From Oscillospiraceae bacterium (GTDB taxonomy: Bacteria; Bacillota; Clostridia; Lachnospirales; Lachnospiraceae), in the NCBI GenBank assembly GCA_963640395.1, contig CAVHZH010000001.1:20835-84834 (forward strand): a stretch of DNA of 64,000 bases, in the 5' to 3' direction. A program made the translations under genes and the position numbers. Each line of letters starts with the position of its first letter. Position 1 is the stretch's first letter. Positions 30,036-39,731 of this stretch are shown piece by piece. The notes under the pieces are model-generated. The model saw only the letters and a list, made by a program, of their open reading frames with translations. It searched no databases and was not told the origin of the DNA.

Positions 30036-33000
30036 TTACGACTGACCGGTCAATGCATTGTACAGTTCATCTGCCTGATCCCCGACTGTCTTGTTCACGC
30101 AGGCACTGTAGTTCGTATCTGCAATGTATTCAGCCTCGCAGTCAAAATATGTCTTTGCTGTACTTTCGTCAATATATGGTACTGACTGGAATTCCACCTT
30201 GTATTTGTCAATCGACTGGGTTGTCATATCCGTGAGCGTCACTACCCGTCCTCCGACACGGAATCGGTAAGAGGTTGCTCCCAGTGTCATTGTTGCTTCC
30301 TCCCTAGATTCACTGTATACATATCTATACGGCGTAACCACTCTGTTTCCAATAATTGCCAATGAGATATATTCTGTCTCCGAATGTCCGCTGAGCTTTG
30401 CATATACATACGGACTGCTTTCAGATGCGCAAGTTGTAATAAACTGCTTTGCAAGTGACTTCGCATTGACATTACTATAGTTATCATACAGACGATCCAT
30501 CGCCACAGCTGCCGCAACCTTTCCATCTGCACTCAGTTCATCGAAGGAAGCACCTAATACCTGTTCAATCGCATTTTTCAGCATTGTCTCGCTCATTGTT
30601 GCCGGATTCGTTGCACTGCTTCCACTTCCTGTTCCGCTTCCGCTTCCTGTGCCGCTTCCGCTTCCTGTGCCGCTTCCACTTCCTGTGCCGCTTCCACTTC
30701 CCGTTCCGCTTCCGCTTCCTGTGCCGCTTCCACTTCCTGTGCCGCTTCCGCTTTCTGTTCCACTTTCACTTCCTGTTCCGCTTCCACTTCCTGTTCCGCT
30801 TCCACTTCCCGTTCCGCTTTCACTTCCTGTTCCGCTGTCGCTTCCTGTTCCGCTTCCGCCTCCTATGCCGCTTCCGCCTCCTGTTCCGCTGTCGCTTCCT
30901 GTGCCGCTTCCGCTTCCTGTTCCGCTTGCGGATGTACTTGCATTTGCCTGATCATGCAGGCTGCTCTCTTTGCTGGCTGCGAGCGCTTCGTCAATTTTCT
31001 CGCCCCACTTATTCTGATCTGATTTACTCAGACTGGAATCACCCAATGCATCTTTGATCTGTGACAACGCAGTCTCCGCACCAAGTGTTCCCAACATACT
31101 CAGTGTACTGTCCAATCCATCCGTAACCCCGGAATTCAGGGCACTCACTGCCTCTTGCTTCAGATTGTCAATATCATTCAACAGACCGGTCTGTCCGAGC
31201 GCAACCTGTGCTTCAGCTTTCTCTGCCGCTGTAGACGTATCTGAATTGATAATCTCATTCAGCCGTGTCTCCTCGGCAGCAATCTTTGCATTTGTGTCTG
31301 TGACCAATTCCGCATACTGGGCAGCCAGATTTAAGTCATCTTCATCCAGCGCGTCTTGCTGCTTTTCCTGATAATCTTCCAACAAATTCTTCAACTGATC
31401 CAGCTTTGACATCAGACTCGCATCAGAATCTACGATTTTCTGTGCCAGTTCGCGCAACCATTCAATATGCGCCGTGACTATCTCCTTTACAGTATTCGCA
31501 AAGTCATCGTCCTTAATATTTTTTTCCTGCTCCTCTGCCCATGTAATACACTCATATACATATTTCACCGCATCCGAGGATGACATACGATCCTTCTTTG
31601 CAGTAATCATGGATTCCAGCTCACTGCGTGCGATCTCAACATCTGTCTTATCGTTGTCAAGAATGCTCTTTTTGACCGCATCACTTGAATTCTTCGCCGC
31701 GGCATTCTGATATTCCTGAGATACGCCCTTACCCAACTGAGCGGTAAAGTTGTCCTGTACCGTAGGCAGGAACTCATCATCTATCAGTTTTAATTCGCCA
31801 TCTGCATCACCCACAATGCTATTTTCGATGTTCTGCGCATACTTAATATTGTTGACCAGTCCAATGACAGTCTGGTCAGTCGCCAGATCATTACTGCTCT
31901 TGCATTGATCTGCTAATTGTTTACTCTGTTCATAAATATAAGCACGAATGGTCGAGTCACCGGATGAGAGCATTTTTGCACTATACGAAGTATTGCTTTC
32001 ATTACACATGCTGATGCTGTTCATCACGCTCTCTACCAGAGAGCTGTCCATACTGAACGGATCCACATCTGTCGAATCTGAGTCATCACTTTGTGACTTC
32101 GACGAATAATATTGTCCACTGACGATATTCGACAACTCATTCAGATCAGTAAAGGAAGTGCTATCCTGTGACCCTGCAAGAAGTCCCAGCAAGCTTCCCT
32201 GATCAGATGCATCTGTTGTCGATTCTTCACCGCTATCGAGCAGCTTCTGGAATACCTCTACACGTCTTGCCGCGTCAATGCCATCCATCAATGTCATAAC
32301 GACCTGTGCATTTTCATCCTGCTCCGCTTTAGAAAACGCCTCATAACATTTCTGCAGATTTGCAAGCATCTGGTCATACTCATCCGTCGTTTGTGACCTC
32401 ACATTTTGTGCAAAAAATGAATTCAATGCATCTCTCAGATATTTAAAAGACTTTTCATCCGAAGAAGTAGCCGTATACTTCTCCTCATAGAGCCGACGCA
32501 CCGGTTCGAGTTCTTCCAGCTTCAGTAGGTCGTAGGGATCGGGATCGTCAAATATACAGACAACGTCTCCACTCTTAGCGTCCCTGGTCAATCCATCCGC
32601 ACCTGTATAATATGTAACATACAGGTCATCCAGATCTGTCTCCGGAATCGCTGTTCCCTCTGTTGTGATCGCTGACAGGCTGGAAGCATCCGTGATATCA
32701 TACCACGTTCCATCGGCAAGCTCGGACTTGTAGTAGATCTCATTCTGATCGGAATCAGCCTGTGTATCAACTGCCTTCTCATACAATTCATCCGTCAATG
32801 CCTGCAAATGTATGAGATGTGTACCGATAAACAATACTGAGTTTTCAATCGTGTGCGAACTCTTGTAGGTACTGAACCGGACAGCCGTGCTCTCATCAAA
32901 GACCGCCCATGTCTGCATTGCCGGAATACCTGTCACAAGTACCACGACCGCCAGCAGAGCCGCTGCAGCCGCAGCCAGTCTCTTTTTATGTGATCGAAAT

Positions 33001-33068
33001 CCCCTGCCACATAACTTGTTCCGCAAAGATGTGCTATTCAGATATTTTTTCGTCCTTTCTTTTCTCAT
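30036..33068 (-). CDS. large secreted helical protein with GSGSGT linker and C-terminal stalk-like (Cu-amine-oxidase N-terminal-like) domain
   Basis: Basic plus hydrophobic signal peptide ending TWA; coiled coils; Gly/Ser/Thr repeats; the C-terminal domain call is tentative. Confidence 0.7.
30618..30927 (-). repeat. 18-bp tandem coding repeat, ~17 copies (GSGSGT)
   Basis: ccgcttccacttcctgt(t/g) units. Confidence 0.92.
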
Positions 33069-33083
33069 ACCTTGTAATCCCTC

Positions 33084-38877: not shown

Positions 38878-38885
38878 TCCCTATT

Positions 38886-39731
38886 TTATTGAAGCAGTGA
38901 TTCGGTGCCTATCTTTTTAAATCCGTTAATAAACAAACGCAGCCACGGAATATCACCAAATATTGCCTGTGTTAAAAACGAGGCAATCACCAATATCACC
39001 AACAGGACAGAGATTCGTAGCAACACCTTGAAAATCTGGTCACGGTTTCTTCCAAACCATGCCCGGAAACGACTTCCGATGCCTCCCCGCTGCTTTGGTG
39101 CAGCGGCGATCCGGATATCCTTATACAGCTCTGTAAACTTATGATAGCTCTTTTTTGAAATCTTTTTATCAAGCAGCTGGTAGCTGATCGCCTTCTGTGA
39201 TGCCTTCGGCTCCAATAATTCACGCAGGATCTTGGCACACTGTACGACACACTCGCGTTCAGTCAGCTTCTCATCCAGTTCCTCAAGATTGATCGCAAAT
39301 CCAAGATATACATTGTGGTTCTTGGCGAGATGAAGCTGTCTTTGCTTTAGTATCAGATACAGGATCGGATATGGTATCTCCGCGGAGATACATGCCAGTA
39401 TCGTATTGATACAGATCGTCTCACATTCATTCAGGGAATAGGCATTGCCCATATAAAAATCCTTCAATGCACGCTCCCTGAAATATGGATATACGATCAA
39501 AAACGCTCCCTGATCCGAAAAGCTGTCCACGCAGGAGGCTTCTGTATCAAACTCTGACTGCTCATATACCGTCAGAAACCGCCGCACGATCTCATGATCG
39601 TAGACAACTAGTACAATGTATAGCCCCTCCTCGGTGGCATTTAAATCCTGACAGACCAGAATATCATTCGCCGCCGTCTTTTCCAGCACCCGTATACACT
39701 TTAACCGCATTTTCTGCGACTGATATATCAT
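38886..39731 (-). CDS. putative pseudokinase with C-terminal TM helix
   Basis: Kinase-like topology by eye (beta N-lobe, FLIVYPY hinge, SLNECETIC helix) without HRD/DFG; TM ISVLLVILVIASFL. Confidence 0.5.
   Translation of the reverse strand: MIYQSQKMRLKCIRVLEKTAANDILVCQDLNATEEGLYIVLVVYDHEIVRRFLTVYEQSEFDTEASCVDSFSDQGAFLIVYPYFRERALKDFYMGNAYSLNECETICINTILACISAEIPYPILYLILKQRQLHLAKNHNVYLGFAINLEELDEKLTERECVVQCAKILRELLEPKASQKAISYQLLDKKISKKSYHKFTELYKDIRIAAAPKQRGGIGSRFRAWFGRNRDQIFKVLLRISVLLVILVIASFLTQAIFGDIPWLRLFINGFKKIGTESLLQ

Follow-up and report, generated by a model that had tools for sequence, protein, structure and literature searches.

Can a contractile injection system (CIS) be anchored in, and fired through, the envelope of a walled Gram-positive cell? 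The question is raised by a locus of an Oscillospiraceae bacterium (GenBank assembly GCA_963640395.1, contig CAVHZH010000001.1), from which a stretch of 64,000 nucleotides (positions 20,835 to 84,834; the window hereafter) was analyzed. Five minus-strand open reading frames (ORFs) at 30036..39731 of the window, termed genes A to E in order of transcription, lie inside a CIS operon. A preliminary description, made from the nucleotide sequence alone, had proposed that they form a docking or trans-wall complex, possibly a functional analogue of TssJLM as known from type VI secretion systems (T6SS). We found this block to be strictly linked to one CIS lineage in monoderm Bacillota. Our estimate is about evenly balanced as to whether it specifies an envelope complex dedicated to the CIS, one that would keep the particle on the inner side of the membrane and couple it to the wall, the particle then firing outward in the manner of a T6SS.

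The block within a CIS operon

The block is flanked upstream by a Cis13-like gene, whose match to CIS13_fam falls below that model's curated cut-off, and downstream by a Pvc16 gene (Pvc16_N, E 5e-29), in agreement with its earlier placement between fibre-like and cap genes. The spacing is as tight as first described (-4 to ~40 nt): successive gaps from the Cis13-like gene through A, B, C, D, and E to Pvc16 are 14, 8, 35, -4, 15, and 39 nt. A sequence scan of the coding strand gave no convincing promoter or terminator inside the block. The initial labels of transmembrane (TM) pseudokinase for A, pseudo-cyclase receptor for B, TM MORN protein for C, TolC-like protein for D, and secreted linker protein for E were borne out, as was the view that the block holds no canonical Afp/PVC core gene, since no Afp, PVC, or Cis core model of Pfam, NCBIfam, or PHROGs matched it. 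Each of the five is single-copy in its own genome, which is Lachnospiraceae-like and 99.7% complete.

The surrounding operon is a complete core of the extracellular CIS (eCIS) type, with sheath, tube, spike/hub, gp25, baseplate J, Pvc16, and ATPase. The AAA ATPase gene lies 8 kb downstream of the rest of the core, and its product is 68% identical to the ATPase adjoining the CIS of another genome (G056). Omp85 is absent from this genome and from four other block-bearing genomes (5/5; the control matched in 7 of 14 reference genomes), and the hosts are therefore monoderm. Named homologues of the block come mostly from Lachnospiraceae.

Linkage of the block to one CIS lineage

A scan of species-level genomes gave 159 relatives of gene D, the best 80 of which were analyzed, a sample biased to close relatives. 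Of these 80 loci, 73 contained A, 77 contained B, 79 contained C, and 77 contained E, with an unchanging gene order throughout. A CIS core gene occurred in 75; the other five are contigs of 5.6–8.9 kb that are filled by block genes. Many of the 80 records are metagenome assemblies of Lachnospiraceae-type bacteria, and at least one is a named isolate (L109, Butyrivibrio sp. AE3009), the CIS core of which would lie beyond the end of its contig. Four records labeled Alistipes, Bulleidia, or Bacteroidaceae (L069, L071, L072, and L084) carry a Lachnospiraceae-type locus with a D identity of about 42%, which would reflect either mislabeled bins or transfer.

Broader surveys gave a consistent picture. 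Among 61 relatives, 20 had both D and the sheath, 38 had neither, and three were discordant (one with D on a contig ending in E, one with a CIS, A, B, and a fragment of C at a contig end, and one with a prophage-like sheath). The sheath was matched in 10 of 320 scored genomes of the class (one further genome lay outside those scored) and the C N-terminus in five, namely those with the five closest sheaths. Across 401 genomes of the phylum, C was matched from its N-terminus in six, of which five have close sheaths and the sixth has C on a contig of 7.4 kb together with other CIS genes, while full-length D occurred in two, both in CIS loci (at most two D candidates were scored per genome). Had the block been common apart from a CIS, the proposal would have been undermined; for C and D, the genes surveyed in this way, no such pattern was seen. 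These co-occurrence counts are given without a statistical test because kin are not independent. Between pairs of loci, the identity of the block genes rises with that of the sheath (rho 0.74–0.88), a correlation that shows joint inheritance and no more. The block is also kept through permutation of the operon at 20–30% identity (G040 and G127), and TM or signal segments are conserved in 35–50 of 50 complete loci, depending on the gene.

Membrane-associated proteins A, B, and C

Gene A is predicted to encode a cytoplasmic pseudokinase (residues 1–210) followed by one TM helix (about 232–258) and a short C-terminal tail. Its AlphaFold2 model (pLDDT 86.8) has a protein kinase fold according to both Foldseek and VIA (best Z 13.8, root-mean-square deviation [rmsd] 2.9 over 190 residues, within residues 1–214). 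The gene A profile matched the PDB at E 0.0015, with the catalytic-loop Asp and Asn replaced, and an alignment of 38 homologues contains no conserved β3 Lys or DFG, the HRD motif being likewise absent. In the G040 orthologue a Pro-rich linker and a LysM domain (E 0.001) follow the TM helix; LysM was detected in 1 of the 38 members. Gene A of G127 (L135:16179-17078) is inverted relative to the rest of its operon, yet still lies between the Cis13-like gene and B.

Gene B has four hydrophobic segments, and its predicted layout consists of an N-terminal TM segment, an optional extracellular domain, a TM pair, an extracellular domain, a further TM segment, HAMP, a degenerate class III cyclase, and TPR. 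The family profile matches class III cyclases (CyaB, E 5e-11) as well as HAMP and TPR proteins, and HAMP and Guanylate_cyc are detected in distant orthologues. None of the 14 aligned sequences, among them distant ones, has the second of the metal-binding catalytic Asp residues or the transition-state Asn/Arg pair at the cyclase motif positions. A short form of about 566 amino acids, as against about 810, occurs in 14 of 50 complete loci. The optional extracellular domain is possibly a β-propeller, as suggested by a weak match in 1 of 43 members. A match of gene B to YukB was dismissed, being weak and covering TM segments only.

Gene C encodes a basic N-terminal segment, one TM segment (about 70–90), MORN repeats (E 2e-9), and a C-terminal α/β domain, for which the ESM Atlas gave only leads below 0.9 (DUF4309). 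A P..DY motif ahead of the TM segment is conserved. C is the most widely kept gene of the block and was present in every block-bearing locus whose contig reached it.

Secreted proteins D and E

Gene D has an N-terminal signal, a helical barrel protomer of the TolC/OEP fold (residues 49–468), and two C-terminal β domains. The barrel has the two-repeat architecture of the TolC/OEP family, and the model superimposes on TolC with a VIA Z of 21.6 and an rmsd of 9.0 over 346 residues (Foldseek E 1e-8). Two hydrophobic hairpins (96–111 and 332–346) occupy the places of the TolC strands, with residues that do not vary across 27 homologues, even at identities as low as 22%. With a length of about 16 residues, the first strand segment is of low confidence in the model; full-length membrane-spanning strands were not seen.

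For comparison we assembled 20 TolC-like proteins from 16 loci, consisting of 14 weak D-profile matches of the phylum sample and weak matches of G256 and G268. Hairpins of the D type occur in none of these 20 ordinary monoderm proteins, six of which retain a shorter strand-like motif at the second site, and the β domains are absent from them as well. An RND, membrane-fusion protein (MFP), or MacB gene is adjacent in 13 of the 16 loci; no MFP, RND, or ABC efflux partner of D occurs in its operon. On these grounds we rejected the view of D as an ordinary efflux TolC. A lipobox-like motif is present in 3 of 50 D proteins and 0 of 50 E proteins.

Gene E encodes an N-terminal signal, a conserved domain, a long helical region, a GS-rich linker, and a C-terminal domain. 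The window protein has no family match, no usable match in the ESM Atlas, and nothing significant in sequence searches of the PDB. The family defined by its N-terminal domain is closed, comprises 437 clusters at 50% identity, and corresponds to no known one. Many E homologues end in Cu_amine_oxidN1, a domain missing from the preliminary description (detected in 11 of the 43 members of the alignment and in 9 of the 49 representatives that were picked; E 3.5e-15 in G127). The C-terminus of the window E is tied weakly to this domain through its own profile, which reached G040 at E 6e-4 and left G127 unmatched. Cu_amine_oxidN1 has a wall-binding role, for which our literature search gave no confirmation. 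In G584 (L162:10278-16424) E is present twice in tandem; the two copies are divergent, and no signal segment was detected in the second.

A Cu_amine_oxidN1 gene adjoins the TolC-like gene in 3 of the 16 comparison loci. This bears on the idea that the block is a co-transcribed signaling or export unit without structural contact to the particle, in which B and A would control CIS expression or assembly and D would be an exit duct for a small substrate, like the TolC-like member of ordinary monoderm efflux sets. Such neighbors without a CIS suggest that D and E may derive from a generic surface module, and B does have the architecture of a sensor. Catalytic residues are, however, missing from both A and B, and D has neither a membrane-fusion nor a transporter partner in the operon and bears hairpins and β domains that ordinary proteins lack. 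We consider this explanation decidedly improbable. The three gene pairs, each a TolC-like gene beside a Cu_amine_oxidN1 surface-protein gene, are located at L178:4868-8409, L182:4971-7462, and L184:5231-8853; no CIS gene was found in the 11–12 kb around them, and they are a possible source of D and E.

Modularity and order of gain

The block is modular and not a fixed five-gene unit; B and C form the smallest set, with A and D plus E as additions. The genes, their order, and their CIS setting are as originally described, whereas the idea of an obligatory unit did not survive, since several loci keep subsets. A, B, and C alone are found in G256 and G239, and B and C alone in G268, G488, and locus 1 of G559. 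D and E were not found elsewhere in the genomes of G256 or G268 (99–100% complete); the E search, made in five genomes, had no positive control of its own, although the E profile did match locally in G127. A was not found in G268, G488, or G559, the search of the last two likewise lacking its own positive control while the A profile did match in G256 and G127. Six other Bacillota CIS loci (G286, G159, G706, G559 locus 2, G384, and G287) have none of A to E in the stretches examined, those of G384 and G287 being only partly covered. That loci without D and E belong to diderm hosts was rejected, as no Omp85 was found in G256, G268, or G239.

An unrooted tree of sheath, tube, and chaperone from 26 loci places its four block-less loci on one branch (support 1.0), beside the loci having B and C only. 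This tree, which has no outgroup, suggests that B and C were gained before A, and A before D and E.

A candidate docking site on the Cis13-like protein

The Cis13-like gene probably starts with the ATG at 41551, which corrects an earlier start (close homologues are 601 amino acids in length). The C-terminal half of its product consists of a β domain and, at the end, an Ig-like domain, and was seen in no CIS locus other than those that bear the block; the block-less loci of G286, G159, G706, and G559 (locus 2) match only the N-terminal domain. The terminal Ig-like domain is missing in two of the three loci without A (G268 and G559 locus 1). These patterns are no more than suggestive of the C-terminal half as a docking site for A. 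A complex prediction of Cis13-like residues 380–601 with A residues 1–212 scored 0.17 (mark 0.32), which counts neither for nor against binding, and the Cis13-like alignment gave nothing significant against PDB sequences.

The Cis13-like protein also bears on whether the locus encodes an ordinary eCIS released by lysis, with D, E, and C acting on the outside, where they would display or tether released particles on surviving sibling cells or shield them, and B and A acting as regulators. The core is indeed eCIS-like (Pvc16 cap, probable tape measure, Afp15-like ATPase, and Cis13-like gene), and the secreted proteins D and E have diverged more quickly than the sheath has (median identity between pairs of 0.43 and 0.33, respectively, versus 0.73). 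Against this, the C-terminal half of the Cis13-like protein tracks the block, the only folded domain of A is cytoplasmic, and no holin or endolysin family was found in a scan confined to 45 ORFs of the window. We regard lysis-released particles as rather improbable.

Proposed role of the block

The predicted topology of A to E provides cytoplasmic, membrane, and extracellular parts, as had been proposed. Given this topology, the domain content, and the linkage to one CIS lineage, anchoring and triggering would be the most likely role of the block. In such a scheme, the assembled CIS particle would sit against the cytoplasmic membrane from inside, would be coupled to the wall, and would fire outward from the living cell. 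C together with B would form a minimal membrane anchor, with the basic N-terminus of C inside and a MORN rod outside. A, being catalytically dead, would serve as a scaffold in contact with the periphery of the baseplate, most probably with the Cis13-like protein's C-terminal domains. B would sense an outside cue and pass a conformational signal through HAMP, whereupon the dead cyclase/TPR module might trigger or license firing. D could stand on the outer leaflet by way of its two hydrophobic hairpins, its helical barrel projecting into the wall as a guide or strut, and E could tie the assembly to the wall or surface layer.

This envelope complex is favored by the linkage to the CIS, the retention of the block through permutation, the envelope features of its proteins, and the differences between D and efflux TolC. 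The LysM domain on one A orthologue and Cu_amine_oxidN1 on E homologues also appear to favor it, as may the absence of the Ig domain from two of three loci without A and the lack of a lysis family among the window ORFs scanned. Precedents treated below, namely transmembrane pseudokinase hubs and the repeated gain of unrelated anchors by eCIS-type particles, favor it as well.

Several observations weigh against it. The lumen of a TolC trimer is about 3.5 nm and the CIS tube about 8 nm across, such that D either assembles into a wider ring or is not the conduit. The block genes include no peptidoglycan hydrolase, and the core belongs to the eCIS type. Neither D nor E was found in G256 or G268 or in the loci of G488 and G559, so some members do without a trans-wall part. 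In L088 and L099, genes A, C, D, and E are present, with B found nowhere in the genome. G488 retains the Ig domain of the Cis13-like protein though it is without A, and in G158 there is a partial, C-like protein with TM and MORN parts but no accompanying CIS. The class and phylum surveys covered C and D only. Lastly, Streptomyces shows that a membrane partner can serve firing that is tied to the producer's own death (10.1101/2024.06.25.600559).

A bolder version of the envelope complex, which we hold to be possible yet on balance doubtful, is a cell-attached, outward-firing system of walled Gram-positive gut bacteria, effectively a T6SS of monoderms, that was built stepwise from an eCIS. A MORN anchor with a dead-cyclase receptor would have come first, a pseudokinase hub second, and a TolC-derived wide barrel with a wall tether last; barrel and tether would guide the tube through peptidoglycan, and the system would deliver the adjacent Q-rich cargo into neighboring cells.

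Comparison with known systems

Canonical TssJ-TssL-TssM resembles the block in its proposed role, which is to dock the baseplate, cross the envelope, and bind the wall. Unlike the canonical T6SS (subtypes i–iii), the present system has no outer membrane, and a lipobox-like motif is rare in its D and E proteins. The analogy to TssJLM drawn in the preliminary description can stand as a functional likeness at most; it does not extend to kinship, as no Pfam or NCBIfam model for TssJ, TssL, TssM, or the equivalent complex of Bacteroidota matched any gene of the block.

The Streptomyces CIS with its CisA protein shares with our locus a monoderm host, an eCIS-type core, and a cluster-encoded bitopic membrane protein (10.1101/2024.06.25.600559). 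The cytoplasmic N-terminus of CisA has been proposed to recruit the baseplate (10.1101/2024.06.25.600559), which can be likened to the layout of C and A. CisA is a single protein, as compared with up to five here, and no TolC-fold, MORN, pseudokinase, or receptor part is described for it; the C-terminal domain described for CisA also sets it apart from the block proteins. The Streptomyces cluster has no tail-fibre gene, in contrast to the Cis13-like gene here, and its known outcome is death of the producer.

These likenesses raise the alternative of a trigger resembling CisA, in which the block would recruit free cytoplasmic particles to the membrane upon a stress or contact cue. Firing would then be directed into the producer's own envelope, leading to regulated death or differentiation, with D and E serving in outer sensing or bracing and nothing delivered to neighbors. 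The smallest set, receptor B with bitopic C, has a layout like that of CisA, which is bitopic and needed for contraction; the block is also without a wall hydrolase, and the TolC lumen is too small for the tube. Such a trigger does not easily account for the large secreted TolC-fold protein and wall-tethered partner that are kept intact across Lachnospiraceae-type loci, or for the large, variable cargo-like genes that adjoin the operon in arrays, in pairs with GNAT-fold genes. We judge it unlikely.

The haloarchaeal T6SS is likewise an eCIS-type cluster that has become membrane-bound and outward-firing, with a putative anchor gene (Hbor_38620) confined to one CIS clade (PMC11566945). Cis12 and Cis13 at the baseplate periphery were suggested as contacts in that system, and its Cis11 was reported to be closest to Bacillota (PMC11566945). 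The haloarchaeal system differs in having a single putative anchor with six TM segments, no complex seen outside the membrane, and an S-layer without peptidoglycan (PMC11566945). T6SS subtype iv of Aureispira has in common with the block a tape-measure CIS, a trans-envelope anchor unrelated to TssJLM, and extracellular parts proposed to relay the trigger (10.1101/2024.01.29.577165). Compared by description, it differs in its diderm host, and the report makes no mention of TolC (10.1101/2024.01.29.577165). Streptomyces, haloarchaea, and Aureispira together indicate that eCIS-type particles gained unrelated anchors more than once (10.1101/2024.06.25.600559, PMC11566945, 10.1101/2024.01.29.577165).

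Individual proteins of the block have parallels of their own. Transmembrane pseudokinases are hubs in Gram-positive type VII and type IV secretion systems (T7SS and T4SS; 10.1101/2020.05.09.085852, PMC13037476). EssB/YukC of T7SSb and TraF of the Gram-positive T4SS resemble A in combining a cytoplasmic pseudokinase with one TM segment in a monoderm secretion locus. The best structural matches of A are Hanks-type kinases, YukC/EssB not being among the matches listed, and A has almost no extracellular domain, unlike EssB/YukC and TraF. D shares the two-repeat helical barrel with TolC/OEP factors and their monoderm homologues but differs in its strands shortened to hydrophobic hairpins, its two extra β domains, and its lack of an adjacent efflux pump.

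No description of this block was found in the literature (subscription papers lay mostly outside the search), nor was anything found that joins contractile injection with a MORN repeat; the part of PMC10117717 available contains nothing on CIS in Lachnospiraceae. Catalogues of eCIS such as that of PMC8213781 may include a number of these loci, entered as eCIS whose accessory genes are unnamed. The locus may thus represent a membrane-associated CIS with a previously undescribed set of parts, which may work like the T6SS membrane complex without being a member of the TssJLM family.

The envelope-attached, outward-firing contractile systems compared here from the available literature belong to diderm bacteria and haloarchaea, and the monoderm Streptomyces case is cytoplasmic and tied to producer death. 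Outward firing from an envelope anchor has not yet been shown for a thick Gram-positive wall. If the proposed role is true, abundant commensal Clostridia of the gut and rumen would gain a contact-dependent weapon, the locus would show how a tube crosses a Gram-positive wall, and the TolC fold would have a new use without an outer membrane. An isolate-based survey found eCIS to be depleted from mammalian microbiomes (PMC8213781); in contrast, this lineage gave the 159 D matches noted above. The isolate record with the block makes the question testable.

Surrounding operon and neighboring genes

The positions of the block and of the surrounding CIS genes are given in Table 1. The tape-measure label (20756-23272) is inferred from position.

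Table 1. Genes of the block and of the surrounding CIS operon, in window coordinates.
Feature	Position	Strand	Length or match
Gene A, transmembrane pseudokinase	38886..39731	-	281 aa
Gene B, HAMP/pseudo-cyclase/TPR receptor	36442..38877	-	811 aa
Gene C, transmembrane MORN protein	35174..36406	-	410 aa
Gene D, secreted TolC-fold protein	33084..35177	-	697 aa
Gene E, secreted protein	30036..33068	-	1010 aa
Cis13-like gene	39746..41551	-	CIS13_fam E 1e-27
Pvc16 cap, 256-aa conserved gene, DUF4280/PAAR-like gene, sheath; directly downstream of block	26471..29996	-	
Tube, chaperone, DUF6760, second tube with repeats, probable tape measure	within 9872..26407	-	
Two CIS_tube genes, hub, spike, gp25, two baseplate J-like genes, Tail_P2_I	within 9872..26407	-	
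CIS AAA ATPase (Afp15-like), 5' part; continues past window start	1..1865	-	AAA E 6e-28, whole protein

A perfect 12-bp hairpin at 25858-25884, between the tube and chaperone genes, could stabilize or attenuate the sheath-tube transcript. The second tube gene (23313-25175) is fused to a Lys-rich repeat tail, and its homologues range from about 165 to 970 amino acids. Two tandem CIS_tube (Afp7-like) paralogues at 18938-20730 are about 30% identical, with distant loci having one. After the CIS operon, at 3979-9791, is a partner-switching set of STAS, MatE-HATPase fusion, GNAT, Cache-SpoIIE, and HATPase genes; this set might regulate the CIS, and related genes adjoin the CIS in several other loci.

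On the other side of the operon, at 41811-63714 on the minus strand, is an array of GNAT-fold genes, each adjoining a large cargo-like gene. Several of the cargo-like proteins (512, 535, 593, and 1846 amino acids) have Q-rich N-termini, and the longest has an ABC1-type kinase domain. Similar pairs occur beyond the ATPase (G000:C1:12970-16766) and on contig C58 (9893-12395), while it is only in close relatives that the pair of GNAT gene and 1846-aa gene lies immediately upstream of the Cis13-like gene. The GNAT-paired large proteins are candidate CIS cargo, with the GNAT-fold proteins as possible chaperone or immunity partners. In G256, an SLH protein gene follows B, and two tandem cargo-like genes with near-identical N-termini and weak similarity to PI3/PI4-kinases are located between B and the CIS ATPase (L118:9405-13869). 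No link was found between the 593-aa cargo-like protein of the window and this kinase-like cargo of G256.

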